Virus record (IMG/VR): IMGVR_UViG_2740892219_000014
Length of the DNA: 16,633 nt
Reading direction: 5' to 3' (one strand)
From: a virus
Taxonomy: Duplodnaviria > Heunggongvirae > Uroviricota > Caudoviricetes
A program made the position numbers and the translations under genes. Shown here piece by piece: positions 349-16,633 of the stretch. Each line of letters opens with the position of its first letter. Position 1 is the stretch's first letter. Under the pieces are notes generated by a model. It was not told the origin of the DNA, did not search any database, and saw only the letters and a program-made list of their open reading frames with translations.

Positions 349-567
349 TTTTCATCTCCATATATCTTGCACCCTGTATGGACTCTGATGTGAGTTACAC
401 CACGGATATCCGCTAAGTTGGTGCAATTACTGCTTTTCAATACATTCAACACGCAAATAAATAATCACAATGTATATGCAATAAAAATTAAAACGAATTA
501 TAAATTCACAAAACAAATATATTATTTTCATTACATGTCTTATCAACAGGAGTGCCATTTTACACGA

Positions 568-587
568 TACTGTATACATACACAGTG
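568..587. promoter_or_regulatory. Putative LexA (SOS) box TACTGTATACATACACAGTG
   Basis: CTGT-N8-ACAG palindrome with 17/20 matches to the E. coli consensus TACTGTATATATATACAGTA, both half-sites intact. Lies in the AT-rich divergent intergenic region; a TTGAAA -35-like hexamer sits on the minus strand at 613-618, oriented toward the Mor-like gene, with the -10 ambiguous. Confidence 0.6.
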
Positions 588-903
588 CTATTTATCATTT
601 TTATCGCCTACTTTTCAAAAAGCTCGTTTCCCTCACAGTCGAGGATTTTTTTAAACAAACTTTAAAAATCAAATAAGTAACGACCATGATTGCAATATGT
701 CATCCCCTTCATTACACATAACGCAGGATTTATCTAACTAGCAGCCATTTTATCCTTAGTTCTCTATTTTGAGTTGGGAGATTAATTGGCGAACATGTTA
801 ATTCGAAGAGAACACATTTTTTAAAGTTATTTATTAAAGCTTTTTTCATTCTTCAGCAAAGAGATAAGCAGACACTGGTATCTCACTTATCAGGAGATAT
901 CGT

Positions 904-1191
904 ATGAAAAAAATCACTTTTCCCCGTCTTTCCGGTTGGCTGGCTGCAGCCATTGCTCTGATTGCATTAATCGGCTGGACATCTTCAGCACAAATTCCGG
1001 TCGTCATTTATAAACTAAGCCTGGTTTCACTTTCTGCAGTGCTGGGATACTGGCTCGATCGTAGTTTGTTCCCCTGGGCACGGCCTGACTTTTTTTGCCC
1101 CAGAAAGGAACCGCGTTGCTACGCAGCGGCAATGATTCGTCGCGCCATCATCGTGGCTGCAGTCTGCCTTTCCGTCGCGTTAGGGCTATAG
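904..1191 (+). CDS. Small hydrophobic membrane protein, putative holin
   Basis: 95-aa ORF with AGGAG RBS (892-896) 7 nt before the ATG; 2-3 hydrophobic segments and a charged C-terminal region; its stop TAG (1189-1191) abuts the start of the downstream endolysin gene. Function inferred from position and topology only. Confidence 0.45.
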   Translation: MKKITFPRLSGWLAAAIALIALIGWTSSAQIPVVIYKLSLVSLSAVLGYWLDRSLFPWARPDFFCPRKEPRCYAAAMIRRAIIVAAVCLSVALGL

Positions 1192-1193
1192 TG

Positions 1194-1799
1194 ATGTGGC
1201 TAAAATATATCGCGCTTATGATTATTTTCGTTCTTTTCCCGCTTAACGCGTCTGAACCACCACAAGCCTCTCTGGCATGGAGAAATGAATTGATTCGTAC
1301 CGCCCGAGAAGTCTGGGGACTGAACGCTCCGGTGGCTGACTTTGCCGGGCAATTACACCAGGAGTCCGCCTGGCAGCCAATGGTACGCTCCCCCGTTGGC
1401 GCACAAGGTATGGCGCAATTTATGCCTGCCACAGCGACATGGATAAGCCAACTGTATCCACAGCTACATGAAAACAAACCGTATAACCCAACCTGGGCAA
1501 TCCGGGCGTTGGTACAGTACGACCAGCATTTATGGAACAACATCTCTGCAAAAAATGATTGTCAACGTATGGCGTTTACTCTAAGCGCCTATAACGGTGG
1601 TCAGGGTTGGATTAACCGGGATAAAAAACTGGCGACAACAAAAGGGTTAAATGCCGCCATCTGGTTTGGTCATGTTGAGCAAGTCAACGCCGGGCGCAGC
1701 GCCGCAAACTGGCGAGAAAATCGTCACTATCCGAAGATGATTCTCTATCAACACGCCGCCCGCTACTTACTCTGGGGACAGGCAAGCTGTCTTCACTAA
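1194..1799 (+). CDS. Endolysin, lytic transglycosylase (SLT domain) with N-terminal signal or signal-anchor
   Basis: 201 aa from ATG 1194. N-terminal hydrophobic stretch MWLKYIALMIIFVLFPLNA; the three SLT motifs are present in order: catalytic E-S (QLHQESAWQP), GxxQ (GAQGMAQFMP), AYNxG (LSAYNGGQG). Confidence 0.8.
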   Translation: MWLKYIALMIIFVLFPLNASEPPQASLAWRNELIRTAREVWGLNAPVADFAGQLHQESAWQPMVRSPVGAQGMAQFMPATATWISQLYPQLHENKPYNPTWAIRALVQYDQHLWNNISAKNDCQRMAFTLSAYNGGQGWINRDKKLATTKGLNAAIWFGHVEQVNAGRSAANWRENRHYPKMILYQHAARYLLWGQASCLH

Positions 1800-1811
1800 T
1801 CAGAGGGGCCG

Positions 1812-2126
1812 ATGAAACTCAGTATCGATTTTTGGGAAGTGATCTCCTTTATGCTTTCATTCGTTGGATTAATGTTTGCTGCCGGAAAATTGCTGTTAGC
1901 GCAAATTGAAAAAAGACTTAATGAGCGTTTTGAGTCCCTGGAAAATGCCCGCAGGGAATCAGAAACAAGCTGGTCGAAACTGGAAAGAGAATTTCTCGAA
2001 TTTCGTGCCGAACTTCCACTGTATTATGTCCGCAGAGAGGATTATCTTCGTGGACAAGCAGTATTAGAAGCAAAGCTGGATGCCTTATATAGCAAAATAG
2101 AGTTATTACAACGTGGCAGTTATTAA
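1812..2126 (+). CDS. Membrane-anchored coiled-coil protein of the lysis cassette (possible spanin-like or Mu gp25-like)
   Basis: 104 aa with GAGGGG RBS; N-terminal TM helix (ISFMLSFVGLMFAAGKLLL) followed by a charged heptad-like segment; sits directly after the endolysin and before a terminator. Functional class is inference. Confidence 0.4.
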   Translation: MKLSIDFWEVISFMLSFVGLMFAAGKLLLAQIEKRLNERFESLENARRESETSWSKLEREFLEFRAELPLYYVRREDYLRGQAVLEAKLDALYSKIELLQRGSY

Positions 2127-2130
2127 ATAC

Positions 2131-2164
2131 ATCCCCACCTTTACGTAAGTGTGGGGATTTTTTA
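2131..2164 (+). terminator. Rho-independent terminator after the lysis cassette
   Basis: ATCCCCAC (2131-2138) pairs with GTGGGGAT (2151-2158) around a palindromic TTACGTAA loop, followed by a run of six T; located 5 nt after the stop of the 1812-2126 gene. Confidence 0.7.
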
Positions 2165-2271
2165 TAACCATTCAATTTTTTCTCTAAATCACATTAAAAG
2201 ATTCTTCACTCTCACTGCTTCAGAATACATTTCAACGATAACGAAGTGAGCGGTAATAAGGTACACCTCAT

Positions 2272-2727
2272 ATGAAAGTTTTATCTGTAATGAATTATGT
2301 CGTGGTCAGATTACGTGATCGGCATCCTGAAATGGACATATTCATTTCATCTACGGATGCCCAAAAATATATTCCACAGACACAACAGATTACGGTGATT
2401 ATTAATTATAGCGGTTCTGTCTTCACCACGCCCGAAAGTAGTGATGCCATTGTACAACAGCAAATACTCCGCTTAACCGCCACCGTTATTGTTGGCAAAA
2501 ATTGTGATGCGTTAAACGCACTTGATCACATACGCAGCGCATTGGGAGGCCTTCAGCCTCCTGATTGCGATCATCTTATTTGGCTTGAAAAAGAAATTAA
2601 TACGGGTGAGAGCGACGGTTTCTGCCGCTACATCCTGGAAATGGCGACCAGCTCGCTGTTTATCGCTGAACAGGACAGCACGGATCTTCCCCTGCTTACT
2701 GAAGTTAATTACGAGGAAACTGAATGA
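2272..2727 (+). CDS. Phage virion protein, Mu gp37-like (putative tail completion or terminator protein)
   Basis: 151-aa ORF at the position Mu gene K (gp37) occupies immediately upstream of the sheath gene; its stop overlaps the next ATG (ATGA). Start codon uncertain (ATG 2272 or 2290). Family assignment from synteny and size, not a strong motif. Confidence 0.45.
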   Translation: MKVLSVMNYVVVRLRDRHPEMDIFISSTDAQKYIPQTQQITVIINYSGSVFTTPESSDAIVQQQILRLTATVIVGKNCDALNALDHIRSALGGLQPPDCDHLIWLEKEINTGESDGFCRYILEMATSSLFIAEQDSTDLPLLTEVNYEETE

Positions 2728-2921
2728 AATATATCTACAACGGTCCGGCAAGCGGCGTCACCCTTGCCGACGGTCAAGAAATCTTATTATGGCCGAACAG
2801 TGAAATTGATCTGCCAGAAGACAATGAGTGGGTTATGACCATGATTGCCCGAAATCACTTGATTCTCATCATCCCCCAGGAAGAACAAAATAACGTAGAG
2901 GAAATTGTACATGGCAGCTAA
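2724..2921 (+). CDS. Small phage protein, Mu gp38-like, translationally coupled between gp37-like and sheath
   Basis: 65 aa with GAGGA RBS (2714-2718); start overlaps the upstream stop and its end overlaps the sheath start by 11 nt; acidic; syntenic with Mu gp38. Confidence 0.4.
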   Translation: MKYIYNGPASGVTLADGQEILLWPNSEIDLPEDNEWVMTMIARNHLILIIPQEEQNNVEEIVHGS

Positions 2922-4332
2922 TTATCTGCACGGTGTAGAAACCATTGAAATTGAAACCGGCCCGCGTCCGGTAAAAGCAGTAAAATCAGCTGTAATCGCT
3001 TTAATCGGTACCGCTCCCTGTGGCCCGGTAAACCAACCGACGCTGTGCCTTTCTGAAAGTGACGCGGCACAGTTTGGATCGATTCAGGCTAACTTTACGA
3101 TCCCGCAGGCGCTGAAGGCGATTTATGATCACGGTGCCGGTACAGTGGTGGTAATTAATGTGCTGGATCCAGTAAAACATGGACTACACATTACCAATGA
3201 AACCATTACGTTCAATAGTGACGATAAAGCTAAATTAGCTCATCCGGGGGTAAGTTCGGTAACGCTAAGAGCAAGTATCAGTTCCACTACATACAAAAAT
3301 ACATCATACAGCGTTAATGCCGCTGACGGCGTTATTACCCGTACAGGAACTGAAATTGCGGCAGGAGCAAAGGTTTACGCGACTTATACCTATGTTGACC
3401 CTACAAAGGTCACCGCAGCCGATATTATCGGGGCCGTTAATACCGCAGGCGATCGCACGGGGATGAGGCTCCTTCAGGACACTTATAACTTGTATGGTTT
3501 CTACGCCAAAATTCTGCTGGCACCCGTTTTTTGTACGCAAAAATCAGTGACTACCGAGCTGATTGCACAAGCGGAAAAACTCGGTGCGATTACCTACATT
3601 GATGCCCCAATTGGGACTACATTCCAGCAGGTATTGGCTGGACGCGGTTCGCAAGGCGCAATCAACTTCAATACCAGCTCTGATCGTGCACGTTTATGCT
3701 ACCCACACGTCAAAGTTTACGATGGCATCACTAACCAGGAAATTCTTGAACCTCTCTCTTCGCGCGCTGCCGGGCTACGTGCCAAAGTAGACCTCGAAAA
3801 AGGTTTCTGGTGGAGCAACTCAAACCAGGAAATTCAGGGTATTACCGGTATCGAACGTTCGCTTTCCGCAATGATTGATGATCCACAAAGCGAAGTGAAT
3901 CAGCTCAACGAAAACGGTATTACCACTATTTTCAATAGTTATGGTTCTGGTCTGCGCCTGTGGGGCAACCGCACAGCGGCATGGCCAACCGTGACTCATA
4001 TGCGTAACTTTGAAAACGTTCGCCGGACAGGCGATGTAATTAATGAGTCAATCCGTTATTTCAGTCAACAGTATATTGATATGCCGATCAATCAGGCACT
4101 GATTGACGCGCTGACCGAATCGGTAAATACCTGGGGCCGAAAACTGATTGCCGACGGCGCACTGCTTGGCTTTGAGTGCTGGTACGATCCGGCGCGAAAT
4201 TCACCGGCTGAACTCAGTGCCGGGCATTTATTGCTCAGCTATAAATTTACCCCACCGCCGCCGCTGGAACGTCTGACGTTTGAAACTGAAATTACCTCTG
4301 AATATTTAGTCTCTCTGGAGAGCAATCGCTAA
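2911..4332 (+). CDS. Contractile tail sheath protein (Mu gpL / P2 FI family)
   Basis: 473 aa from ATG 2911 (GAGGA RBS 2898-2902; the track's TTG at 2905 is less likely). N-terminus MAANYLHGVETIEIETGPRPV is typical of sheath proteins; size and position directly upstream of the tube gene fit. Confidence 0.9.
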   Translation: MAANYLHGVETIEIETGPRPVKAVKSAVIALIGTAPCGPVNQPTLCLSESDAAQFGSIQANFTIPQALKAIYDHGAGTVVVINVLDPVKHGLHITNETITFNSDDKAKLAHPGVSSVTLRASISSTTYKNTSYSVNAADGVITRTGTEIAAGAKVYATYTYVDPTKVTAADIIGAVNTAGDRTGMRLLQDTYNLYGFYAKILLAPVFCTQKSVTTELIAQAEKLGAITYIDAPIGTTFQQVLAGRGSQGAINFNTSSDRARLCYPHVKVYDGITNQEILEPLSSRAAGLRAKVDLEKGFWWSNSNQEIQGITGIERSLSAMIDDPQSEVNQLNENGITTIFNSYGSGLRLWGNRTAAWPTVTHMRNFENVRRTGDVINESIRYFSQQYIDMPINQALIDALTESVNTWGRKLIADGALLGFECWYDPARNSPAELSAGHLLLSYKFTPPPPLERLTFETEITSEYLVSLESNR

Positions 4333-4856
4333 TGGCTGGAAAAATTCAAATTAACCGTATTACCAACGCCAATATTTATCTCGATGGTAATAATCTTTTA
4401 GGCCGTGCAACAGAAATTAAATTGCCAGATGTCAGTTTAATTATGCAGGAACATAAAGCACTGGGCATGGTGGGTAAAATAGAACTCCCGGCTGGTTTCG
4501 ATAAACTGGAGGGGGAAATTAAATGGAACTCCTTTTACCAGGACGTAATGCGTAAAACGGCAAACCCGTGGCAGGCTGTAGCATTACAGTGTCGCTCCAG
4601 TATTGATTGTTATAACTCTCAGGGGAAAGCGAATCAATTAGCGTTAGTCACACATTTAACCGTGATGTTTAAAAAAAATCCACTGGGCACATTTAAACAG
4701 AATGAAAACCCGGAATTCAGCAGCGCCTTTGGCTGCACTTATATTAAACAAGTAGTCGATGGTGAAACGCTGCTTGAACTGGATTATATGGCGAATATTT
4801 TCCGCGTTAACGGCGTGGATCAATTAAGTACCTATCGCAATAACATCGGTGGCTAA
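4332..4856 (+). CDS. Tail tube protein (Mu gpM / P2 FII family)
   Basis: 174 aa; start overlaps the sheath stop (TAATG). N-terminus ...NANIYLDGNNLLGRATEIKLP and C-terminus ...NIFRVNGVDQLSTYRNNIGG closely resemble the P2 FII tube pattern (NLFxDGxN ... VNGVDxLxxxRxNIG). Confidence 0.9.
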   Translation: MAGKIQINRITNANIYLDGNNLLGRATEIKLPDVSLIMQEHKALGMVGKIELPAGFDKLEGEIKWNSFYQDVMRKTANPWQAVALQCRSSIDCYNSQGKANQLALVTHLTVMFKKNPLGTFKQNENPEFSSAFGCTYIKQVVDGETLLELDYMANIFRVNGVDQLSTYRNNIGG

Positions 4857-4862
4857 GTTATT

Positions 4863-4878
4863 CGGGGCTACGGCCCCG
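4863..4878 (+). other. GC-rich hairpin (CGGGGC-TACG-GCCCCG) right after the tube gene
   Basis: Perfect 6-bp GC stem with tetraloop 7 nt after the tube stop; no T-run follows, so more likely an RNA stability or attenuation element than a full terminator. Confidence 0.35.
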
Positions 4879-4906
4879 AACTCCGCAAAATAAATAAGGA
4901 TACAAA

Positions 4907-5224
4907 ATGAAAGAGCATTATATCTTACAGTTTCCCTTTACGTCGGCAGCAGGAAATAATATCGACACGCTACAATTACGTCGCCTGAAAGTCAAAGATA
5001 TGCGTAATGCACGCCGGGTCAGCGAAAAGCCGGAAGAATGGGATGAACCGCTAATGGCAGCGATGACCGGGCTGGTACCAGAAGATTTAGCTGAAATGGA
5101 TTTGCTGGATTACCAGGCGTTGCAGAAACGATTTCAATCCATGCTTACCGTGGCTACAGAATCCCCCCTTGCTATGGCAGGCAATGGCGCTACTGGCGAG
5201 ATGGTTTCGCTTTCCACCCAGTGA
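4907..5224 (+). CDS. Tail assembly chaperone (P2 gpE / Mu gp41 position), short in-frame product
   Basis: 105 aa, acidic, with AAGGA RBS; located between the tube and tape-measure genes, as for tape-measure chaperones. Confidence 0.7.
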   Translation: MKEHYILQFPFTSAAGNNIDTLQLRRLKVKDMRNARRVSEKPEEWDEPLMAAMTGLVPEDLAEMDLLDYQALQKRFQSMLTVATESPLAMAGNGATGEMVSLSTQ

Positions 5225-5312
5225 GATTGACGCTCTAACGATAGATGACTTTAGTCACTGGCTGGATGAAGCCAGCGCTCAAATAAAAATCGAATATGAC
5301 TCGCAGACCTGA
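5163..5312 (+). other. Putative programmed frameshift site (C6 run) and +1-frame extension giving a longer chaperone isoform
   Basis: The +1 frame (equivalent to -2) is open from 5055 to a TGA at 5310-5312, overlapping the chaperone 3' end; UCC_CCC_CUU at 5162-5170 would let tRNA-Pro re-pair 2 nt back; the extension reads ...PPSEIDALTIDDFSHWLDEASAQIKIEYDSQT. The -1 frame closes almost immediately. Confidence 0.45.
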
Positions 5313-5412
5313 TGTCTGCGAGTTCTTCAAAGCCCGCCAGGTTTATTTCTTCCCAGCCCATTTTTCAGAAAACTAACCAGCGGGCCATCACCAATCTATA
5401 AGAGAAACAATT

Positions 5413-7788
5413 TTGGCCAACGATATTATTACCCAGCTTCAGGCGCGTAATGAGACGTTGACGCAGGCAATAGCCCGTTACGGCTCACTCAACGCCAGAA
5501 CATTGTTAGCACTCTCTTCTCAGCAAGCGACAGTAATCAAACTAACGCAGCAACTTGCCGATTCCGCTCTCCGCCTGGAGGAAAATAGCCGAAACCGCGC
5601 TGATCTGATGGAGAAAACCCAAACATTTGCTGGGCAATTTAGCAAAGTATTCAATGTTGAAGTCCCTGACTGGAAGTTGCCGTATGAGTTTCAGGACAAC
5701 ATGGTCAATTTGGCGACCAAAGGTGGGATGAATGATACAACCCGCGAGACACTCAGCCTTAATCTGCGCGACTGGAGCATGGATTTTAACCAGCAGCAGA
5801 CCACCTTACAGAACGCAGCCCAGGTGCTAATCGAAGGTAATTTGTCGTCGATGCAGGATCTCAACCGTTATATGCCGGAGCTCGCCAAAGCGGCCACCAC
5901 CACGCGCGAAAGTGCTGAAACATGGGCGAATGCCGCGCTCGCGACTCATGATCGACTGAATATTGCGCCAGAAAATTTCCACGCCGCGCAAAACATGATG
6001 TACGGCATTAGCAAAAACGGTGGGCCTACCGTTGCCGGGCAAACACAGTGGATAGACAAATTTGCAGTTAAAACTGGCGCACAGGGTTTAGAAGGTATGG
6101 CTGAACTGACCGCCACAATGCAGATCGCAATGAAAAATGGTGCCAGCGCCAGTGTGGCGGCGGAGAATTTCGACCACTTTCTGCAAACCATCTTTTCGAA
6201 AAAAACCGATAACTGGTTCGTCAGCCAGGGCGTCGATCTGCAAGGCTCTTTGCTTGAACATCAGCAAAACGGCATGGGTGTTAGCGAAGCCATGATTCAT
6301 ATCGTGCAAACGCAACTTGAGAAGATGAATCCGGCGATCCTCGACACCTTCAAACGCACCATGCAAATTGAAGATTTATCTGCTCGCAGCAACGCACTGC
6401 AATCGATGGTGACGCAATTTAATCTGGGCGAAATGTTCGGCGATGCGCAAACAGTGGAATTCCTGGCACCTGTGCTGGCGAATATGGAAGAGTATCGCCA
6501 GTTAAAAGCATCCGCCATGCAAGACAGCGGTAAGAATATGATTGACAACGATTTTTCTGTGCAGATGGCCTCGCCCATTGAACAAACTAAAACGTTACAA
6601 CTGGCGTTAAATGATTTATGGCTCAGCATTGGCTTGCAATTAATGCCGCTGATTGGCGAGTTGGCGCAAAGCCTTACTCCGGTGATTCGCCAGTTCAGCG
6701 CCTGGCTACGTGAACACCCGGCGCTGGTGCAAAACATTGCGAAAATCGTCGGAGCGATTTGGCTGTTTAACGGCGCACTGAATGTTTTAAAGCTGGGCGC
6801 GAACGTCATCGCCTCGCCGTTTATTCGTCTGGTCGATATCTTCCTGAAAGTCAGGGCAAGTCTGACGCTCACAGGCGCGGCAAGTAAGATGCTATCAGCG
6901 GTTAATTCATTATATAACGGCGCAAAATGGCTAACGCAACTGCTTGGCCGTGGCCTGATTGGCGCATTGAAACTGGCAGGTCAGACCGTCTTCTGGTTGG
7001 GTAGAGTTTTATTGATGAATCCTATTGGTCTGGTCATCACCGCGATTGCGGGCGCTGCTTATCTGATCTATCGCCACTGGGAACCTATCTCCAGATTCTT
7101 TTCCGCCATCTGGCAACGTATCACCACGGCCTTTGACGGCGGCATTGCAGGGATTTGCCGGTTAATTCTCGACTGGTCGCCGCTGGAGTTGTTCTACAAC
7201 GCCTTTTCCAGTGTGATGAATTGGTTTGGTGTCGAGATGCCTGCAAGTTTTAGCGAGTTCGGCAGCAATCTTCTGGGCAGTCTGGTTGACGGCATAATGA
7301 ATGCTTTCCCCGCTCTGAAAGGCATTATTGATCAGGTCAAAAACGCCTTACCGGACTGGCTAAAAACCACGATGGGTATTAGCACAGAAGGATCGGCTAC
7401 GGCTGTTACAAGCACGACGAATACCGCATCAATCTCCCCCACGACCGTTGTTCCAGGCGTTGCCGGAGCGATTTTAACGCCTCCTGTGGGCAAACAACTC
7501 GCGCCATCCAGTAAAACGACAACGTCGCCATCGACACCAGCGGAAAAAAATACAGCCGCCAAACCCGCATCGGCTTCTTTACCTGGTAAATCTGTAACCA
7601 AACCGGCGACGCTCCCCTCCCGTTCCTCTGGAAAAGTTCAGGTGAATTTTTCGCCACAAATTACCGTGCAGAGTAACGGACAAAACACCACTAAAGACAT
7701 TCAGAACGTGTTGACGATAAGTAAACGCGAACTGGAAAGAATGATTAACGACGTAATGGCGCAACAACAGCGCCGGGGGTATGCCTGA
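5413..7788 (+). CDS. Tail tape measure protein
   Basis: 791 aa; helical Q/A/L-rich N-terminal half, hydrophobic glycine-rich segments in the middle, and a Ser/Thr/Pro-rich low-complexity C-terminal region; sits after the chaperone gene. Apparent TTG start at 5413 (no in-frame ATG or GTG after the upstream stop at 5374-5376). Confidence 0.85.
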   Translation: MANDIITQLQARNETLTQAIARYGSLNARTLLALSSQQATVIKLTQQLADSALRLEENSRNRADLMEKTQTFAGQFSKVFNVEVPDWKLPYEFQDNMVNLATKGGMNDTTRETLSLNLRDWSMDFNQQQTTLQNAAQVLIEGNLSSMQDLNRYMPELAKAATTTRESAETWANAALATHDRLNIAPENFHAAQNMMYGISKNGGPTVAGQTQWIDKFAVKTGAQGLEGMAELTATMQIAMKNGASASVAAENFDHFLQTIFSKKTDNWFVSQGVDLQGSLLEHQQNGMGVSEAMIHIVQTQLEKMNPAILDTFKRTMQIEDLSARSNALQSMVTQFNLGEMFGDAQTVEFLAPVLANMEEYRQLKASAMQDSGKNMIDNDFSVQMASPIEQTKTLQLALNDLWLSIGLQLMPLIGELAQSLTPVIRQFSAWLREHPALVQNIAKIVGAIWLFNGALNVLKLGANVIASPFIRLVDIFLKVRASLTLTGAASKMLSAVNSLYNGAKWLTQLLGRGLIGALKLAGQTVFWLGRVLLMNPIGLVITAIAGAAYLIYRHWEPISRFFSAIWQRITTAFDGGIAGICRLILDWSPLELFYNAFSSVMNWFGVEMPASFSEFGSNLLGSLVDGIMNAFPALKGIIDQVKNALPDWLKTTMGISTEGSATAVTSTTNTASISPTTVVPGVAGAILTPPVGKQLAPSSKTTTSPSTPAEKNTAAKPASASLPGKSVTKPATLPSRSSGKVQVNFSPQITVQSNGQNTTKDIQNVLTISKRELERMINDVMAQQQRRGYA

Positions 7789-8741
7789 TGTATGCCGTTT
7801 TAGGAGAGATTGAATTTAAGGTTGTCACATTCTGGGACGGCTTTAAAAGCACAATGGGCGTGGACTACGCCACACATGCCCGTATAGAAGGCAAACCCGG
7901 CGTGCAGTTTATTGGCGATAAGCTGGATATGCTGGCACTGGAATTTTCCTTGCACAGCCAGTTTTGCCAACCCACAACAGAGCTGAATCGACTGCGTGAA
8001 GCCATGCTTGCCCACAAAGCGATGGCTCTGGTGTTTGGCAATGGCGATTATCGCGGCTGGTTTGTGATTACGGAGCTAACCGCCACCCACCAGCACACCG
8101 ATCCCTGGGGCAATGTGATTGCTCAAAGCGGAACAATGTCGCTCCAGGAGTACACCGGCGATCCTAAAAATCCACTCTTGCCCCCGGCAATTACTACCCA
8201 AGACCCGAATATTGACGAAAAGGCGAGCGATTTTCCAGACATGGTGGAGTCCTGGTTTGATCAGATATTGAACGCCATTGAAGAAGGTATGCGTAAGGCC
8301 AAAGAGATGCTCGATGAGCTGACTCAAGCCATTGAAGATATTAAAAAAACGGTGGCAAAAGTGAAAGCACTGGTTAAAGAGGCCAAAGCGTTAAAAGAAA
8401 AGTGTGAAAAGATAATTACGTCGTTGAAAAAGACTATCGACGCCATCGAAACCCTGTTTAAACAGCCCATGGATCTGCAAACGCTGGCAGGACTCCCAAA
8501 AGCGTTGTCGGCGCAGATTAACGCTTTACTGGGTAACATGCCAGGTATCCGGGACTGCGCCAAAGACGCCAGCACGCTGGTTGACCATGCTCAGGCGCTT
8601 TTCGACGACATTACCAACGACATCGCCGAAGCGACGTTCGATAAAGCCGCAACGTTGGTTGAGCAGGCACGAACAACGGTACAACAAACCACTCCCGCAG
8701 TGAGCCAGCTTGCTGCCGCGACCATTACGAGGAGCTGGTGA
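7788..8741 (+). CDS. Tail protein with gpU-like N-terminal domain (about 130 aa) fused to a long predicted coiled-coil C-terminal region
   Basis: 317 aa; start overlaps the tape-measure stop (TGATG). The N-terminal segment fits the slot and general pattern of P2 gpU / Mu gp43 N-domain; residues about 150-317 are K/E/A/L-rich heptad-like sequence (EEGMRKAKEMLDELTQAIEDIKKTVAKVKALVKEAKALKEK...). Confidence 0.5.
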   Translation: MYAVLGEIEFKVVTFWDGFKSTMGVDYATHARIEGKPGVQFIGDKLDMLALEFSLHSQFCQPTTELNRLREAMLAHKAMALVFGNGDYRGWFVITELTATHQHTDPWGNVIAQSGTMSLQEYTGDPKNPLLPPAITTQDPNIDEKASDFPDMVESWFDQILNAIEEGMRKAKEMLDELTQAIEDIKKTVAKVKALVKEAKALKEKCEKIITSLKKTIDAIETLFKQPMDLQTLAGLPKALSAQINALLGNMPGIRDCAKDASTLVDHAQALFDDITNDIAEATFDKAATLVEQARTTVQQTTPAVSQLAAATITRSW

Positions 8742-8950
8742 TGCGATACCTTGAACATATCACCACCGACGGCGAACGCTGGGATAATCTGGCATGGCAT
8801 TACTACGGCGATGCGCTGGCTTATGAACGCATCATCGCCGCCAATCCACATGTCGCCATTTACCCGGTACTGCCTTCCGGTATTCAGCTCATTATTCCGG
8901 TCATTTCCGTCAACAAAACCTTATCGGAGATACCACCATGGCTGAGATAA
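8741..8950 (+). CDS. Tail protein X-like (LysM-like fold, P2 gpX family)
   Basis: 69 aa from ATG 8741 (GAGGA RBS 8730-8734; overlaps the upstream stop). The sequence GERWDNLAWHYYGDALAYERIIAANPHVAIYPVLPSGIQLIIP fits the gpX pattern (GDxxDxLxxxYYG...ANPxL...LPxGxxLxIP). Confidence 0.7.
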   Translation: MRYLEHITTDGERWDNLAWHYYGDALAYERIIAANPHVAIYPVLPSGIQLIIPVISVNKTLSEIPPWLR

Positions 8951-9978
8951 GCGTATCTGGTGGCGTCTTTGCCACACTCGCGCCCATTTTTACCCTTTGG
9001 TATGGGCATAAAGATATCACTTATGACATCACGCCCTATGTCACCAGCATCAGTTACCACGACAGCATCAAAAACGAGTCAGATACCATCGCCATTACAC
9101 TGGATGACACCGATGGACGTTGGATAAAAGAGTGGTATCCCGGCAAAGGCGATACGCTGGCGCTGCATATGGGTTATCAGGGGGAGACGCTCCTCGATTG
9201 CGGTCAGTATATTATTGATAAAATTGATATTTCATCACCACCTTCCACGGTAAATATTGATGGCATTGCCACTTCCGTCAATCAGGCGCTGCGTACCCGT
9301 AACAGTCAGGGCTTTGAAGAAACGACGCTTTCGGCCATCGCCAGTCGTATCGCGCAAACTCACGGTCTGAAGCTGGTGGGCAAAATCGAGCCGCTGGCGA
9401 TTGACCGGGTGACACAGTACGGCGAAACCGATGTTGGATTTCTCAAGCGTCTGGCCAGCGAATATGGCTATACCGTGAAAGTGACGACAAAAGAGCTGAT
9501 TTTTTCACATCTGCCGACACTACGCTGCCTGGCGCCAGTGAAAACCATCGACCGCAAAGAGGTTTCGCACTTTACCTTCAAAGACACCATTAATCGCATC
9601 TACAAGAACGCCACCGTACAGCATCAAAATAGTAAGAAAAAAGAACTGGTTATCTACACTCACGACAGCCAGCAAAAACCGTCAGCCCGTGGAGTCGGCA
9701 CCAGTGCCGACACGTTGAAACTCAACAGCCGGGCGACGGATGTTGGCGCGGCACAGGCAAAGGCCAACGCTGCACTCGACAGCCACAACGAATATCAGCA
9801 AACCGGAACACTCAGGATGATGGGCTGCCCGGAACTGACAGCAGGCAATAAAATCGAACTCATTGATTTTGGTATTCTTTCTGGACAATGGCTGATTGAT
9901 AAATCTACTCACAGTTTTGTGCGCAGCGGCTATACCACTGAAATCGACGTTTCGCGCGGGCCAGCAACCAGCCAGTAA
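8938..9978 (+). CDS. Baseplate hub / late control gene D-like protein (P2 gpD, Mu gp44 family)
   Basis: 346 aa with GGAG RBS; start overlaps the gpX-like 3' end; size and position (after U/X, before the spike) fit the gpD family. Confidence 0.8.
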   Translation: MAEISVSGGVFATLAPIFTLWYGHKDITYDITPYVTSISYHDSIKNESDTIAITLDDTDGRWIKEWYPGKGDTLALHMGYQGETLLDCGQYIIDKIDISSPPSTVNIDGIATSVNQALRTRNSQGFEETTLSAIASRIAQTHGLKLVGKIEPLAIDRVTQYGETDVGFLKRLASEYGYTVKVTTKELIFSHLPTLRCLAPVKTIDRKEVSHFTFKDTINRIYKNATVQHQNSKKKELVIYTHDSQQKPSARGVGTSADTLKLNSRATDVGAAQAKANAALDSHNEYQQTGTLRMMGCPELTAGNKIELIDFGILSGQWLIDKSTHSFVRSGYTTEIDVSRGPATSQ

Positions 9979-9987
9979 GGAGGCACT

Positions 9988-10647
9988 ATGAAGGGAGTAA
10001 CCCGGCAAACGGGGATTATCAGCGATATTGACGAAACCAGCGTTCGGGTGCGAGTCACACTGCCAGAGTGCGACAATCTGAAGAGTAACTGGCTTGCGGT
10101 ACTTCAACGTAATTCCCAGGACAATAAAGACTACTGGCTACCGGATATGGGTGAGCAGGTGGAAGTTCTGCTGGACGACAACGGCGAAGATGGCGTGGTA
10201 CTTGGGGCCGTTTATTCTACGGTTGACACCGCGCCTGTGGCCTCGCGAGATAAACGTTACGTCCAGTTTTCTGATGGCGCAGCGTTTGAATATGACCGCA
10301 GCACACACCAGCTTACGATTAACGGCGGTATTGAGAAAATCGTGATTGAGGTTATTGACCGTACTAACCTGACATCACCCAACGTTGAGGTTAAAGCCCA
10401 ACAGGTCACCGTGACTTCCGATACCGTCGATATTAAAGCGACGGCAGTGACGGTAGATGCGCCCATGAGCACCTTTACTGGTAACGTCACGGTAATGAAA
10501 AAACTCACCTGGCTGGGTGGCATGGCAGGAAGTGGAGGCATCGGTAACGCCGCCACGATAACTGGCAATGTCAATGTGATTGGTAACGTTCAGGCCAGCG
10601 GCACATTGCAGGATAGCGGTGGTAACTCAAATCACCATTCACACTAG
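9988..10647 (+). CDS. Baseplate central spike (P2 gpV / Mu gp45 family)
   Basis: 219 aa with a perfect AAGGAGG RBS; N-terminal OB-fold-like region, a middle region of repeated short beta-strand motifs (VTVTSDTVDIKATAVTVDA...), a glycine-rich section and a C-terminal NHHSH tip, as in gpV-type spikes with a metal-binding apex. Confidence 0.85.
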   Translation: MKGVTRQTGIISDIDETSVRVRVTLPECDNLKSNWLAVLQRNSQDNKDYWLPDMGEQVEVLLDDNGEDGVVLGAVYSTVDTAPVASRDKRYVQFSDGAAFEYDRSTHQLTINGGIEKIVIEVIDRTNLTSPNVEVKAQQVTVTSDTVDIKATAVTVDAPMSTFTGNVTVMKKLTWLGGMAGSGGIGNAATITGNVNVIGNVQASGTLQDSGGNSNHHSH

Positions 10648-10653
10648 CTTTTA

Positions 10654-10682
10654 ACCCGCCTGATGGCGGGTTTTCTCTTTTT
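10654..10682 (+). terminator. Rho-independent terminator-like hairpin after the spike gene
   Basis: ACCCGCC-TGAT-GGCGGGT stem-loop followed by TTTTCTCTTTTT, starting 7 nt after the gpV-like stop; leaves a roughly 60-nt spacer before the gpW-like gene. Confidence 0.55.
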
Positions 10683-10745
10683 AATCAATCAGTTTTCTAA
10701 ATCGCTTTAATATCCCCACTGTCCGTTCAGGGCGAAAATAAGCAC

Positions 10746-11105
10746 ATGAACACAAAAACACGCCCCTCAACGCTGCACTGGCAACCCGCCTTGCAGCGGC
10801 CTGAAGAATACGTCTGCGGACTGGATGATATTCACCAGGCAATACACATCATTCTGCGCACGCCGCGCGGCAGTGATCCCCACAGACCGCTGTTTGGCAG
10901 CAACTTGTGGCACTACATCGATTACCCCATCGAGCGGGCAATCCCGCATGTGGTACGGGAGTCGGTGGAAGCCATCCGCCAGTGGGAACCGCGATGTCGG
11001 TTGCTGAAGGTAGCACCGATAATCGACGGTGAACATCTGACGTTACGTGTGCAATGGCGCGCCGCTGACGGCGTAATCAACTCAACGGAGGTGTTATGGC
11101 GATAG
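10746..11105 (+). CDS. Baseplate protein W (GPW/gp25 family)
   Basis: 119 aa; IHIILRTPRGSDPHRPLFGSNLWHYID ... WEPR matches the GPW/gp25 signature (ILxTxxGE/S...P.FGS.L...D...WEPR). Confidence 0.75.
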   Translation: MNTKTRPSTLHWQPALQRPEEYVCGLDDIHQAIHIILRTPRGSDPHRPLFGSNLWHYIDYPIERAIPHVVRESVEAIRQWEPRCRLLKVAPIIDGEHLTLRVQWRAADGVINSTEVLWR

Positions 11106-12211
11106 CCGAACCCGATTTTATTGACCGCGATCCTGCGCAAATTACCAGCGAGATGATTGCGCAATACGAAGATGCCAGCGGTAAAAAACTCTATCCGGCA
11201 CAGGCCGAACGGTTACTCATCGACCTGTTTGCCTATCGTGAAAACCTTGTGCGCATCGCCATTCAGGAAGCGGCGAAACAAAACCTGGTCGCGTATTCCC
11301 GCGCACCAATGTTGGATTATTTAGGGGAGCTGGTGGGTGTTCACCGTTTACCTGCGCAACCGGCAAAAACGACGTTGCAGTTTTCGGTCGTCAGTGCGTA
11401 TACCAGCAATATCCTGATTCCCCAGGGGACGCGGGCCAGTGCCTCTGACAGCGTGATGTTCGCCACCGATGAAGATGTTCTGCTTCCGGCCAGGAGTTTG
11501 CATATCGCCGTTCCGGCCACCAGCCTCGCAGTAGGTGAACAGGGCAATGGCTGGCAGCCTGCACAGATTAGCGCCCTTGTTGACAGGATCGGTTATTACG
11601 ATATCAACGTGACTAATCTGACTCCCACAACCGGCGGTTGTGGTGAAGAGAACGATGATGCACTACGCCAGCGTATACAACTGGCGCCAGAAAGCTTCAG
11701 TAATGCCGGCAGCTATGGCGCATATCGCTTTCATACACTTTCGGTTAGCCAGTCAATTATTGACGTTACAGTACTGGGGCCAGATGAAGGGTTGCCAGAA
11801 GGCTGCGTCGAGCTCTACCCGCTAACCCTGAATGGTCTGCCAGGAACCGAGCTACTCGCGCAAATTGAACAAGAAGTGAGTAAAGAGAAAAAACGTCCGC
11901 TGACTGACAAAGTAAGTGCGAAATGTGCTCTTAGGGTGCCGTATGAAATTCGTGCGCAGCTAACGCTGTTTACCACCGCCGATCAGGAGACAACACTGGC
12001 TGCGGCGCGTAAAGCGATTAGCCTCTGGACGCAACAGCGGCAGAAACATCTGGGGCAGGACATTGTGCCAAACCAGATAATCAAAGTGTTACAAGTCGAT
12101 GGCGTCTATGACGTTGTGCTGAACATGCCTACAAAACGTATTTTGCAGGCGCATGAATGGGCGGAATGCACTGTAATAGACGTCACGATTGCCGGAGTCA
12201 GCGATGGATAA
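11096..12211 (+). CDS. Baseplate wedge protein J (P2 gpJ / Mu gp47 family)
   Basis: 371 aa; start overlaps the gpW-like stop; DDALRQRIQLAPESFSNAGSYGAYRFHTLS resembles the conserved gpJ core; sits in the gpW-gpJ-gpI order. Confidence 0.85.
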   Translation: MAIAEPDFIDRDPAQITSEMIAQYEDASGKKLYPAQAERLLIDLFAYRENLVRIAIQEAAKQNLVAYSRAPMLDYLGELVGVHRLPAQPAKTTLQFSVVSAYTSNILIPQGTRASASDSVMFATDEDVLLPARSLHIAVPATSLAVGEQGNGWQPAQISALVDRIGYYDINVTNLTPTTGGCGEENDDALRQRIQLAPESFSNAGSYGAYRFHTLSVSQSIIDVTVLGPDEGLPEGCVELYPLTLNGLPGTELLAQIEQEVSKEKKRPLTDKVSAKCALRVPYEIRAQLTLFTTADQETTLAAARKAISLWTQQRQKHLGQDIVPNQIIKVLQVDGVYDVVLNMPTKRILQAHEWAECTVIDVTIAGVSDG

Positions 12212-12920
12212 ATTGCTGCCACCGCCGCCGCTTGCCAGCGATGAGCGTTTTTCAACTCTGGCAAATATCGCCGCCGAACGTTTTGCGCAACTCGATCTGA
12301 CGGCATTAATGATATACCTGGTCGACCTGGTTGATGCTTCGGCATTACCTGCCCTTGCAGAACAATTTCACGTTCAGGGGCTGGAAGGTTGGTTATTTAC
12401 TACTGATGAACAAGAGAAGCGTGAGTTAATTAAGCAAGCCATTGAGTTACATAAATATAAAGGAACAGTTTGGGCGGTACGGCGAGTACTGGAAATACTC
12501 TCATTGCCTGGAACTATTGCCGAATGGTTTGAATATGGCGGGAAAGCTTATTTTTTTAAGGTTGATATTACACTAGAGGAAAAAGGGTTAAATGAAGATG
12601 AATTTAATGCACTTATCACATTAATTCATGAATATAAAAATGTTCGTTCAAAACTGGAAAGTATTGTTATTTGGCTTATTAATCAAAGCTCAATACCAGT
12701 TATTGGCAGTGCCATGCAAGGAGGGGAAATCATTACAGTATTGCCTCCTGTTGCAGAAAGTATCAGCCAATCATCAAGAATATTTTTAGCGACAGGTTAT
12801 TGTGTAGAGGAATATATCCAACTACTACCTTATCAACCTGATCGCCTTACACAATCCCAACCGATGAAAATCGGTACAGGATACTGGAGCACCGAAATTA
12901 TGTCTGTATACCCGGAGTAA
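12204..12920 (+). CDS. Baseplate/tail protein I-like (P2 gpI / Mu gp48 position) with an AT-rich C-terminal extension
   Basis: 239 aa from ATG 12204 (GGAG RBS; ATGGATAA overlap with the gpJ-like stop; the track's TTG at 12189 is less likely). N-terminus [16 protein letters not shown] fits the gpI type; the 3' half (about 12480-12920) is markedly AT-rich compared with neighbours. Confidence 0.65.
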
Positions 12921-12922
12921 TA

Positions 12923-14671
12923 ATGGCAAGTGAATTTTTTACAATATTAACTGCTGCAGGCAAAACCCAAATTGCCTCAGCACTGGCGGAGCAAAAACAG
13001 ATCCGTCTGCAAACTATGGTAGTTGGCGATGGCAACGGTAAATATATCGAACCGACAGAAATCCAGACCAAAGTAGTCCATGAGGTCTGGCGTGGTCAGC
13101 TCAATACATTAAAAATTGCGCCAGATAATCCGGCCTGGGTTATCGCAGAAGCGATTATTCCCGAAGAGGTTGGAGGCTGGTATGTTCGCGAAGTTGGGTT
13201 GCTGGATACCGACGGCACGCTGGTCGCTATTGGTAAATTCCCTGAAACCTATAAACCACAATTACCTGCAGGTGCCAGTAAGCAAATTGTTATACGCGCA
13301 GTGATGGAAGTGACAAATGCGGATGTGGTGACGCTGTTGATAGATCCTTCAGTTGTTATGGCAACCAGGGAATATGTCGATGACACGCTGAAAGCACATC
13401 AGCAATCACGAAATCATCCTGATGCAACACTGACGCAGAAAGGTTTCACGCAACTGAGTAATGCAACTAATAGCGATGATGAAACCAAAGCGGCCACACC
13501 AAAAGCAGTAAAAACCGCATATGACCTGGCAAATAGCAAAGCCGCCACCAGCCATACTCATGGCTGGAATCAGATAACCAGTATCCCTGACGGTACGCTG
13601 GCGCAGAAAGGGATTGTGAAGCTTAACAGTACCACAAACAGCACCAGCACAACGGAAGCTGCAACACCGAGCGCGGTGAAGGCGGCAATGGATAAGGCTA
13701 CTGCGGCTGCACCAGCAAGCCATACCCACACCTGGGGACAAATCACTGGTATCCCCGACGCCACGCTGACGCAAAAAGGAATTGTGAAGCTTAACAGTAC
13801 CACAAACAGCACCAGCACGACGGAAGCTGCAACACCGAGCGCGGTGAAGGCGGCAATGGATAAGGCTATTGCGGCAGCACCAGCAAGTCATACCCACGCC
13901 TGGGGACAAATCACTGGTATCCCCGACGCCACGCTGACGCAAAAAGGAATTGTGAAACTTAACAGTACCACAAACAGCACCAGCACGACGGAAGCTGCAA
14001 CACCGAACGCGGTGAAGGCAGCAATGGATAAGGCTATTGCGGCGGAAAACTGTCCCGTAGGTATGCCTATTCCCTGGCCGTCTGATTCTGTACCTTCAGG
14101 CTATGCGCTGATGACAGGACAAACATTCAATAAAACCTCCTATCCCAAACTGGCGATTGCATATCCATCTGGTGTCATTCCTGATATGCGTGGATGGATA
14201 ATTAAAGGGAAACCGGCCAGTGGGCGCACAGTATTATCAACTGAACTGGATGGAGTTAAATCACATAACCATACGGGCAGTATTTCTAGTACGGATTTAG
14301 GGACAAAAACCACAGCCCTCACAGACTTGGGGACTAAAACTACATCAGCATTTAACCATGGTAATAAAACAACAAGTTCATCTGGCACAGTCTCGGCAAC
14401 TGCAACTGTAAGAACAGGGACATCTTCGCCAGAGGGCCAAGCCGACTGGACATCATATGGCCCTGGAACCGGATCATCTTTGACTATTAATGTTCCATCA
14501 CACGCCCATAGTATTACAATTGGTTCCCATTCCCACACTGTTGCACTCGGCACCCATTCGCATTCAATTGCCCTTGGTTCCCATAACCACTCCCTAACCA
14601 TTAATAATACAGGCCCCCCCGAAAACACCGTTAAAAATATCGCATTCAACTATATTGTGAGGCTAGCATGA
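12923..14671 (+). CDS. Tail fiber protein (P2 gpH / Mu S type) with collagen-like repeats and a His-x-His tip
   Basis: 582 aa. Conserved N-terminal baseplate-attachment region (HEVWRGQLN...[38 protein letters not shown]...[48 protein letters not shown]); three 56-aa tandem repeats ([36 protein letters not shown]...); a C-terminal array of H-x-H motifs; and a terminal ...[15 protein letters not shown]. Confidence 0.9.
13553..14045 (+). repeat. In-frame 168-nt tandem repeat, about 2.9 copies, inside the tail fiber gene
   Basis: Copies begin at 13553, 13721 and 13889 (period exactly 168 nt); copies 2 and 3 are nearly identical at the nucleotide level and copy 1 is more diverged; a degenerate partial copy lies upstream at about 13425-13552. 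Confidence 0.85.
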
Positions 14672-15375
14672 ATACTTTTACCTTTTCCGATGAAGCTCAA
14701 ATACTGACTGTTTATAATTTTTCACAAGACTCCCGAGAATATATTGGTGAGTCTGATGCATACATTGCGCCTAATACAGGCTTACCAAATTTTTGCACAT
14801 TAATTTCACCTCCCAAAAAGGTTCCTGGTTTTACTCCTGTTTGGGAGAGTGAAACATGGGGACTTATTGAAGATCATCGAGGCCAAACAGTTTATAACAA
14901 AGTTGATGGCAGCCAGACTATTATTAATAAATTGGGTCAATTGCCTGAAACTGTCACAATTATTTCCCCTACCAGTACTTTTGAGCGTTGGGATGGCGAA
15001 AAATGGCAGCCATCACTTGATGATGCTAAACAGGCGATATATGCCGAAATCAAAAACCTGCGCGATTCTGCCATCGCCGATTACATCATCATCAACGCTC
15101 ATCACTTCCACAGTGATACAAATAGCCGAATACAACAACTCTCACTCACAAAAATGGGAGCCGAAAAACAAATTCCGCCAGGTTTAATGTGGAAAACTAA
15201 AAATAACGGTCTGATTGAGTTAACCAACGAAATCGCCGCCCAGTTTGAATCGGTAACAATAGATCACGATATGCGCCTGTTTGCCAACGCCCAGCGCCAT
15301 ATTGCGGCGGTGGAAACTCTGGGCGATATTCAGGCAGTGCTCGACTACGACTACTCCACAGGCTGGCAACCATGA
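14668..15375 (+). CDS. Tail fiber assembly protein (Tfa, chaperone for the fiber tip)
   Basis: 235 aa; start overlaps the fiber stop (ATGA). N-terminal region ...[34 protein letters not shown]...[20 protein letters not shown]...[13 protein letters not shown]...WDGEKW resembles lambda/P2-type Tfa N-domains; the C-terminal half is divergent. Confidence 0.8.
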
Positions 15376-15827
15376 GTAAAACCACTGTCTGGCTCGCTTG
15401 CTATAAAGGCCGAACAGAGCACCGGGGTATTGCGCAACTAGCTGACTGGCTTACCCGTAAAATCACACGCGGCAGTTATTCCCACTGCGAGTTAGCAGTG
15501 GTATATGGTGAAAAAAATTACCTTTGTTACTCTGCATCACTGCGCGATCGCGGTGTACGCGGAAAGATAATGCCACTACCGTCAGATAAGTGGGATATGC
15601 TGCCGCTCCAGGCTAGCGTTCAGGATGTGGAAGCTTTTTTCCATAAACATAATGGCAAAAAATACGACTGGCGCGGAGCCTTAGGAATTATCACAGGCAA
15701 TAAAGAACAGCGCGATCGTCTGTTCTGCAGTGAATTTTGCGCCGAGTTTCTACAGTTAAAAGAGAGTTGGCGCTATTCCCCAAACCATTTGTATGCTTTA
15801 GTCAGCAGTTGGCAATATCAGCCGTAA
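15372..15827 (+). CDS. Hypothetical 151-aa protein coupled to tfa; possible permuted papain-like (NlpC/P60 YaeF/LRAT-like) hydrolase or acyltransferase
   Basis: ATG overlaps the tfa stop (ATGA), so it is the last gene of the tail operon. An N-proximal His (SYSHCELAVVYG) and a C-proximal Cys in a CSEF context (RLFCSEFCAEF) tentatively fit a permuted His...Cys papain-like arrangement. It is real as an ORF; the function is weakly supported. Confidence 0.5.
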   Translation: MSKTTVWLACYKGRTEHRGIAQLADWLTRKITRGSYSHCELAVVYGEKNYLCYSASLRDRGVRGKIMPLPSDKWDMLPLQASVQDVEAFFHKHNGKKYDWRGALGIITGNKEQRDRLFCSEFCAEFLQLKESWRYSPNHLYALVSSWQYQP

Positions 15828-15832
15828 AATAA

Positions 15833-15853
15833 CGCCGGGCATCACGCCCGGCG
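15833..15853. terminator. Hairpin shared by the convergent gene ends; likely terminator for the minus-strand gene
   Basis: CGCCGGGC-ATCAC-GCCCGGCG stem-loop between the plus-strand stop (15825-15827) and the minus-strand stop (15842-15844, inside the loop); on the minus strand it is followed by TTATTTTAC, whereas on the plus strand no T-run follows. Confidence 0.55.
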
Positions 15854-16633
15854 CATTACCGTCTGGTACAGTAAACTATCCAGTTCCTTAACGTCCCCTT
15901 CCCTGCTGTCCGGTAACACTGGTGGAATTTTCCCGTGCACCAGTTCCGTACTAATAAACACATGCAACAAAGGACGACGCGGACCATATTCCACTTCACC
16001 CGCACGCTGTTTACATTCCAGCAACTCGTCTATTTCTGCGCGTAACGGCGCATCAAGTTCGCTTCCCGCCAGTAATTCGGCAAACCGCATTGGCAGTACA
16101 CCTTTACCCGCTTCAACCCAACGCACAGCCAGCAGTGGCCGCAGCACGTAAAAGTATTTTTTCAGCCAAACTACGTTGCCCTGCAAATAACCGCGAAAAT
16201 TTTTCCGCGCCATCGGATAATAATGCCAACGCGCGCGCAGCGGAGAAAACCACTTCGGCACCATTGCCTTAAGCGCCGTTATCGTTTCTTCATCTTGTTG
16301 ATAGACCACCGGAGAATCCAGCCATTCAATCAGCGTCGGATTCGCGCCTTTCAGTAATCCCAGCGCCTTGCGCCACTCCCAGCCTGAAACATCTAACTCG
16401 TCGTCAATAGGCAACTCAATAACATCGCGCGGCGCCTCCACCCGCAGATACCATTCCGGCGGATGAACATACAAGAACCGCACATCGTAGTCGCTGTCGG
16501 GTGAGGCAAATCCCCAACCGCGACTCCCCGATTCACTCGCATACAACACTTTCACATCATACCGCCGTTCAATTTCTTTTAACTGCTGCGATACCCGTTC
16601 GTGCATCGCAACACTGACTCCATTTAATGGCAT
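15842..16633 (-). CDS. Nucleotidyltransferase-fold protein (Pol beta superfamily)
   Basis: 263-aa ORF whose ATG is the last codon of the window (16631-16633), so the true N-terminus could lie beyond the edge. The motif LYASESGSRGWGFASPDSDYDVRFLY matches the minimal nucleotidyltransferase signature hG[GS]-x(9-13)-DhD; it is convergent with the tail operon. Confidence 0.6.
   Translation of the reverse strand: MPLNGVSVAMHERVSQQLKEIERRYDVKVLYASESGSRGWGFASPDSDYDVRFLYVHPPEWYLRVEAPRDVIELPIDDELDVSGWEWRKALGLLKGANPTLIEWLDSPVVYQQDEETITALKAMVPKWFSPLRARWHYYPMARKNFRGYLQGNVVWLKKYFYVLRPLLAVRWVEAGKGVLPMRFAELLAGSELDAPLRAEIDELLECKQRAGEVEYGPRRPLLHVFISTELVHGKIPPVLPDSREGDVKELDSLLYQTVMRRA

Follow-up and report, generated by a model that had tools for sequence, protein, structure and literature searches.

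An in-frame shaft-module array in an Escherichia albertii tail-fibre gene, with probable unit turnover and a homogenised interior

The shaft of the tail fibre considered here is encoded by tandem units of nearly the same DNA sequence, and the question is whether these units were duplicated or converted recently, were brought in together from elsewhere, or are old copies held alike by selection on the protein, and whether their number is real. The stretch of DNA that we analysed, hereafter the window (16,633 nt), is Escherichia albertii DNA, and the fibre gene occupies positions 12923-14671 on the plus strand. Its 582-aa product is 100% identical to WP_059271789.1, annotated as 'phage tail protein [Escherichia albertii]'. 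The assignment as a tail-fibre gene rests on the ORF list, the translation, this exact protein match and the Pfam domains (PF12571, four copies of PF03406, and PF07484), and 12923-14671 is the sole long plus-strand frame, with one stop codon in frame 0, whereas the two alternative frames have 32 and 42.

The fibre gene and its repeat array

The domains of the fibre follow one another in a simple order: a baseplate-attachment domain of the P2 gpH type (residues 1-149, nt 12923-13369, plus strand; PF12571, E 1.3e-57), four repeated motifs (residues 167-374) and a C-terminal receptor-binding tip homologous to the distal tip of T4 gp37 (residues 374-582, nt 14042-14671, plus strand). The repeated motifs belong to Pfam family PF03406 (Pf2), which the protein matches with 214.6 bits against a cut-off of 22 in four separate stretches, the best of them at residues 169-208 and covering profile positions 1-40 of 42; as in tail-fibre proteins with this family, they lie between an attachment domain and a distal domain. 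Upstream of the fibre gene are Baseplate_J (11096-12211) and Tail_P2_I (12189-12920). Downstream, and overlapping the fibre stop codon, is a tail-fibre assembly chaperone on the same strand (14668-15375; DUF4376/Caudo_TAP, PF14301 and PF02413; phrog_1807 and phrog_105), which co-varies with the tip.

Tandem Repeats Finder reports the array at 13581-14043 with a period of 168 nt, 2.8 copies, 95% matches, no indels and a score of 828, which is far above chance. When unit boundaries are set in the protein register D[AG]TL[TA]QKG, an in-frame tandem array of 168 nt (56 aa) per unit spans 13421-14045, so that the start at 13425 given in the first-pass annotation was good to within four bases. All units are on the plus strand. 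The first, u0 (13421-13588), is an old and diverged Pf2 motif with an HxH linker, about 58% identical in nucleotides to the other units and saturated in dS against u1 and u2, and is conserved at 99-100% among E. albertii alleles. It is followed by two full units of 56 aa, the edge unit u1 (13589-13756), conserved by position, and the interior unit u2 (13757-13924), which is homogenised and 96-98% identical to the interior units of other alleles. The last, u3 (13925 to about 14045), is the fourth PF03406 stretch and is truncated after about 40 aa: it keeps the whole Pf2 motif and lacks the linker, its similarity to u2 stopping at about nt 121 of the unit, where it joins the tip domain directly. 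The array thus totals four PF03406 motifs with three HxH-W-QITGIP linkers between them. Nucleotide identity is 94.0% for u1 and u2 (168 nt), 95.9% for u2 and u3 (123 nt) and 90.2% for u1 and u3. The earlier count of three 56-aa units is right for the full units and leaves out the truncated fourth, and the statement that only the second and third copies are near-identical has to be revised, since three copies are near-identical and the closest relative of u2 is u3. Likewise, the fibre-repeat peptide that had been assigned to every unit occurs exactly in u2 only; u1 has AQKG and u3 has PNAV.

The two minus-strand ORFs that had been called spurious products of the repeats are both present at the coordinates given for them: a 178-aa frame at 13406-13942, directly complementary to the fibre frame and with a repetitive Cys/Arg-rich translation, and an 82-aa frame at 13570-13818, wholly inside the fibre gene and also repetitive. 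The codons TTA, CTA and TCA occur 19 times in the whole gene and not once in the 208 codons of the array, and the directly complementary antisense frame is open because the array lacks them. In all relatives the open antisense stretch grows with copy number and measures 107-331 codons. To judge from these sequence features, the economical reading is that both ORFs are by-products of the repeat.

Comparison with P2 gpH (NP_046775) places the fibre in a known type. Both proteins have an N-terminal PF12571 domain followed immediately by tandem PF03406 motifs, the identity is 44% over the first 297 residues (gpH residues 25-295), and the gene order J-I-H-chaperone is the same. However, gpH has two motifs with a period of 44 aa and a GKYTAQ linker, whereas the linker here is the 16-aa HxH-W-QITGIP, and the distal part of gpH (PF21446 and its own C-terminus) is unrelated. 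The earlier remark that the repeated motif is also found in P2 gpH therefore holds at the level of the family, gpH being PF12571 plus two PF03406 motifs with the 44-aa period and no HxH linker. The tip has a different relative: the last 209 residues align over their whole length with the T4 gp37 tip (PDB 2XGF, E 4.6e-62, query 374-582), including the collar (PF07484), the HxH motifs and the terminal peptide. The tip alone is common to the two proteins, since the T4 shaft has no PF03406 array and the fibre here has a P2-type N-terminus.

A second in-frame repeat lies within the tip, where Tandem Repeats Finder detects a 27-nt period at 14513-14590 (SHAHSITIG / SHSHTVALG / THSHSIALG / SHNHSLTIN). 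Their counterparts in the alignment with 2XGF are the HxH repeats in the needle of T4 gp37, which are the iron-binding sites of that needle.

The PF03406 motif was reportedly found by Haggard-Ljungquist and colleagues, and by Sandmeier, in the early 1990s to be shared and rearranged among the fibres of P2, Mu, P1, lambda and the T-even phages. PF03406 is also common to our fibre and Mu S/gp49 (PDB 5YVQ, 8JU3, 9KI1), but Mu S has a single motif. Megablast of the fibre gene against the phage collection gave no match, and tblastn against the same collection gave modular matches only, either to the N-terminus plus motifs or to the tip alone. PF03406 motifs are present in lambda Stf and in the collagen-like fibres of EHEC prophages, and little is known of the structure and function of Pf2 (PMC3368898). 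Length polymorphism of the EHEC fibres comes in whole multiples of repeat units, the varying elements there being collagen triplets and heptads, not Pf2 (PMC3368898).

What the module may look like can be read in part from its linkers. The consensus S-H-x-H-x-W-x-Q-I-T-x-I-P is found in each of the three, and direct reading of the sequence places the HxH of linker 1 (His211, His213) at 13553-13561 and those of the other two at 13721-13729 and 13889-13897, all on the plus strand. H213 is nearly invariant in alignment A1, and the close Escherichia relatives (MASEFF-type) have one HxHxW..IT linker fewer than they have motifs. An AF2 monomer model (18-sequence alignment) has a mean pLDDT of 43.7, with values of 60-85 only in the N-terminal domain and below 50 in the shaft and tip; its hint of a single helix in each unit, at the TPxAVKAAxDKA segment, comes from a part where at pLDDT <50 the model is unreliable. 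In sequence searches of the PDB no solved multi-unit Pf2 array appeared, the only matches being to the single motif of Mu S, and the Mu cryo-EM paper says no more than that gp49 was modelled at its N-terminus and leaves motif coverage unstated.

Age of the units and their number among alleles

To date the units we compared their synonymous divergence with that of the rest of the gene. Within the window, dS is 0.16 for u1-u2, 0.11 for u2-u3 and 0.29 for u1-u3, at dN of 0.01-0.05, or 0.01-0.03 for the two neighbouring pairs; these are Nei-Gojobori estimates on units of 40-56 codons, so that each dS rests on 3-16 changes. The two corresponding paralogous units of the E. coli orthologue (u1-u2) have a dS of 0.74 at a dN of 0.02, and between E. 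albertii and E. coli the flanks have a dS of 0.24 (N-terminal domain) and 0.22 (tip). The raw counts give the same picture: 4 of 120 sites differ between u2 and u3 of the window versus 16 of 120 between u1 and u2 of E. coli (Fisher p = 0.009), and 10 of 168 between u1 and u2 of the window versus 28 of 168 between the window's u1 and that of E. coli (Fisher p = 0.003). Because the dS between neighbouring units (0.11-0.16) is lower than that of the flanks, the units of the window are younger than the split of the two versions of the cluster.

Units taken from seven alleles were also placed in a neighbour-joining tree, which adds a second line of evidence. The E. albertii units u1-u4 form one clade, apart from the units of E. 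coli and of E. fergusonii. Within that clade u1 forms a sub-clade by position, with 99-100% identity between alleles, and the interior units of different alleles are intermixed. Judged on sequence, such a pattern is the usual signature of an array that has been homogenised inside and carries older units at its edges. The original proposal of recent duplication or gene conversion is thus borne out by the dS contrast, by both Fisher comparisons and by the single E. albertii clade.

Part of this clustering by lineage could have another origin, however. If the whole array had been imported by homologous recombination from another PF03406 fibre gene (mosaicism), the E. albertii units would also group together. 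Over the repeat region (window 13421-14045 versus L001 13499-13993), u0 included, the dS between E. albertii and E. coli is 0.5-1.0, or 2-4 times the flank value. It follows that the array and the remainder of the gene have had different histories, and that part of the lineage-specific clustering may be due to recombinational import of the array. PF03406 is also present in many co-resident prophage fibres, and the tip and chaperone cassettes are demonstrably mobile, with a breakpoint at the array. On the other hand, import leaves unexplained why alleles with otherwise identical flanks differ by single units, tandem duplication would still be needed to make the units whatever the donor, and no donor was found, the megablast search of the gene against phages having given nothing. 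We consider import as the main explanation to be unlikely, though it is the alternative that survives best.

It is much less likely that the units are old and have been kept similar solely by purifying selection on the protein, with no recent duplication or conversion. The low dN between units (0.01-0.05) is what such selection would produce, and the E. coli paralogues do keep their protein identity despite the divergence of their DNA. But it is these same paralogues, with dS of 0.74 at dN of 0.02, that show that the protein can stay conserved while the DNA drifts, and in the window the synonymous sites are near-identical too, with dS of 0.11-0.16 against 0.22-0.24 in the flanks. With unit dS below that of the flanks and far below that of the E. 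coli paralogues, the identity of the DNA goes beyond what protein constraint alone would give and indicates recent duplication or conversion. Moreover, copy number varies among alleles whose N-terminal domains are 100% identical.

Copy number itself can be followed across Escherichia. Orthologous fibres have 2 motifs (470 aa), 3 (526 aa), 4 (582 or 442 aa), 5 (498 aa) or 6 (554 aa); the step per motif is always 56 aa, and the N-terminal domains of these orthologues are 92-100% identical in nucleotides. The E. coli orthologue is found in 147 complete genomes at >=80% coverage and about 89% identity, and in the top matches it spans 1581 nt, which is the window's gene minus exactly one 168-nt unit; in further E. 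coli alleles the span is 1611 or 1641 nt. The cleanest case is a near-isogenic E. albertii allele (P0002), which is 98-100% identical to the window in each 100-nt block over about 6.7 kb except for one clean 168-nt gap. The comparison of related strains that had been proposed as a check for repeat-number polymorphism therefore yields alleles with 2-6 motifs in Escherichia, and at the level of sequence the predicted change in steps is seen in two series of orthologues, of 470/526/582 and 442/498/554 aa. By extension from these sequences, each unit would change the physical length of the fibre.

Repeats of this kind could in principle be collapsed or expanded by short-read assembly, and two observations point that way: several E. 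albertii drafts carry 'partial' fibre proteins of 208-302 aa (P0121, P0126, P0129, P0130 and P0132-P0134) on contigs that are about 27 kb long apart from one of about 12 kb, and the first 3-motif allele to be retrieved, P0002, comes from a MEGAHIT metagenome contig. The lengths of the 'partial' proteins fall inside the array, as they would if short-read assemblies tended to break at this point. However, an array of the same four motifs stands without gaps, at 97-100% identity to the window, on the closed chromosome CP117620.1, and the copy number of the window is hence not an artefact. Nor is the array, since alleles with 3, 4 and 6 motifs all sit in megabase-scale E. albertii assemblies of 4.7-5.0 Mb: 3 motifs (526 aa) on 4.85- and 5.0-Mb contigs, 4 motifs (582 aa) on contigs of 4.87-4.98 Mb as well as on CP117620.1, and 6 motifs (554 aa) on CP099877.1. 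In addition, an independent assembly (contig DBGXXH010000017.1) agrees with the window with 1 mismatch in 13,711 nt, and the units differ from one another at 5-12 sites, which is sufficient for anchoring reads. An assembly origin is accordingly very improbable, slightly more so than an explanation by protein constraint alone.

Tail-fibre genes are classical targets of diversity-generating retroelements and invertible segments, but programmed diversification, whether by a template/variable pair or by an invertible G-segment or shufflon, has next to no probability here, because the copies are direct, in tandem and in the same ORF, there are 0 inverted repeats in 12800-14800, and no reverse transcriptase or invertase is encoded in the window or its flanks. 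As regards the individual candidates, a retroelement target was rejected because none of the window ORFs encodes a reverse transcriptase and the differences between units involve all bases and are not adenine-specific; an invertible segment of the Mu G or P1 C type was rejected on the inverted-repeat count and the lack of an invertase in the window or 10 kb of flank; and phase variation was rejected because a repeat unit whose length is divisible by three leaves the reading frame unswitched.

A separate observation concerns annotation. In E. coli strain 20 (NZ_CP064847.1, L001 13001-14581) RefSeq splits the fibre gene into two incomplete pseudogene fragments, yet the 526-codon frame is intact. 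The call looks like an annotation artefact and is possibly related to the repeat.

Cassette exchange and a mechanism for unit turnover

The first-pass annotation also called the repeats a hotspot for recombination, and for this there is one clear case, the allele on CP099877 (L084). It is 96-100% identical to the window per 100-nt block as far as the array end at about 14000-14045, beyond which the allele is unrelated through the tip and chaperone, to about 15900; the chaperone was swapped together with the tip. The last motif of this allele shares only 78% identity with the last motif of the window and evidently came in with the new tip. The allele on CP117620 (L088) differs from the window only at 14300-14900, a stretch covering the distal tip and the beginning of the chaperone gene. 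Of the left breakpoints of these E. albertii cassette swaps, one is thus at the array end and one within the gp37-like tip. Cassette exchange therefore has one of its boundaries, but not all of them, at the array or its conserved motif.

Tip length is inversely related to the number of Pf2 motifs, with gp37-like tips of about 209 aa accompanying 1-4 motifs and tips of about 75 aa accompanying 4-6. Total fibre length among the 120 best homologues (P0001-P0120), which are 90%-identity clusters and not independent events, ranges from 442 to 628 aa. Taken as a pattern in sequences, this suggests a constraint on overall fibre length.

The mechanism that we propose starts from a module made of a PF03406 motif of about 40 aa and a 16-aa linker, HxH-x-W-x-QITGIP, in the shaft of a P2-gpH-type fibre. 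With 94-97% identity between interior units across the 168 nt, homologous misalignment, be it unequal crossing-over, slipped replication or gene conversion, would gain, lose and homogenise whole units, and because a unit is 56 codons the frame would always be kept. The outcome of this turnover would be the Escherichia alleles of 2-6 motifs. Units at the edges would escape homogenisation, u0 remaining old and u1 conserved by position. In at least one allele, an exchange of tip and chaperone also has its left edge at the conserved motif. Each unit added would presumably extend the trimeric shaft by a fixed length, and the three HxH pairs contributed per trimer may, like those of the gp37 needle, bind metal and so act as a clamp between motifs. 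Overall, we regard it as highly probable that this is an in-frame array of shaft modules with unit turnover via misalignment, a homogenised interior and a cassette edge at the array end.

The tail-only cluster and the meaning of the array

The whole window (1-16633) encodes a divergent Mor-family regulator, a holin, an SLT lysozyme, a complete contractile tail, the fibre, its chaperone and a 151-aa ORF. Specifically, the contractile-tail and lysis genes comprise holin, SLT, sheath, tube, chaperone, tape measure, U, X, D, V, W, J, I, fibre and Tfa, and in E. albertii and E. coli the cluster contains no head, packaging, integrase, transposase or replication genes. In both species it sits at the same site, where the Mor gene adjoins lysC/pgi and the RlaP-slipin genes adjoin yjbD/rluF. 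Being tail-only at a fixed chromosomal site, the cluster is a candidate R-type tailocin.

Some features at the edges of the cluster can be recorded here. The conserved 151-aa ORF after the chaperone (15372-15827, plus strand) has no Pfam match and matches only the N-terminal part of phrog_1128. At the cluster edge are an RlaP nucleotidyltransferase in the opposite orientation (15842-16633, minus strand) and a slipin (L087 13717-14844), and PADLOC gave no match for RlaP, the slipin or the 151-aa protein. Within the tail genes, the tail assembly chaperone (Phage_TAC_7, 4907-5224) is followed by a short overlapping ORF of about 42 aa (L087 2262-2390), an arrangement that, by analogy, would be expected for a programmed frameshift of the gpE/E' type.

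The cluster resembles R-type tailocins such as the R2 pyocin and kosakonicin in having a regulator, a lysis cassette and a complete contractile tail and in lacking head, integration and replication genes, but its gene order is presumably unlike that of the R2 pyocin. As in kosakonicin, the fibre locus is the variable part (PMC6629978). Literature searches found no published description of a tailocin cluster between lysC and yjbD; the ST131 'tailocin' paper concerns two prophage regions of about 23 kb, one of them with head genes (PMC9205054). A more ambitious reading would make this the fibre of an undescribed, chromosomally fixed R-type tailocin of E. albertii and some E. coli, lying between lysC and yjbD, with the number of motifs tuned by selection so that the reach of the fibre stays within limits, adaptive turnover and linkers that act as metal clamps in the trimer. 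If it were true, copy-number turnover would be an adaptive length adjuster alongside tip swapping, but we consider this combination unlikely.

With the more modest reading, an in-frame array that turns over by misalignment, our general understanding of fibre evolution is unaltered: the array is ordinary, a long-known route by which fibres vary their length and exchange their tips. In practical terms it may break short-read assemblies and may mislead automatic annotation, as in the one E. coli genome where an intact gene appears as pseudogene fragments, and the left boundary of the tip and chaperone exchange is useful to fibre or tailocin engineers. What the locus offers is a documented case of concerted evolution together with copy-number turnover in a tail-fibre shaft, in which one species holds 3-, 4- and 6-motif alleles in megabase-scale, mostly closed assemblies and a sister lineage, whose two corresponding units stayed apart at synonymous sites, provides the internal control.
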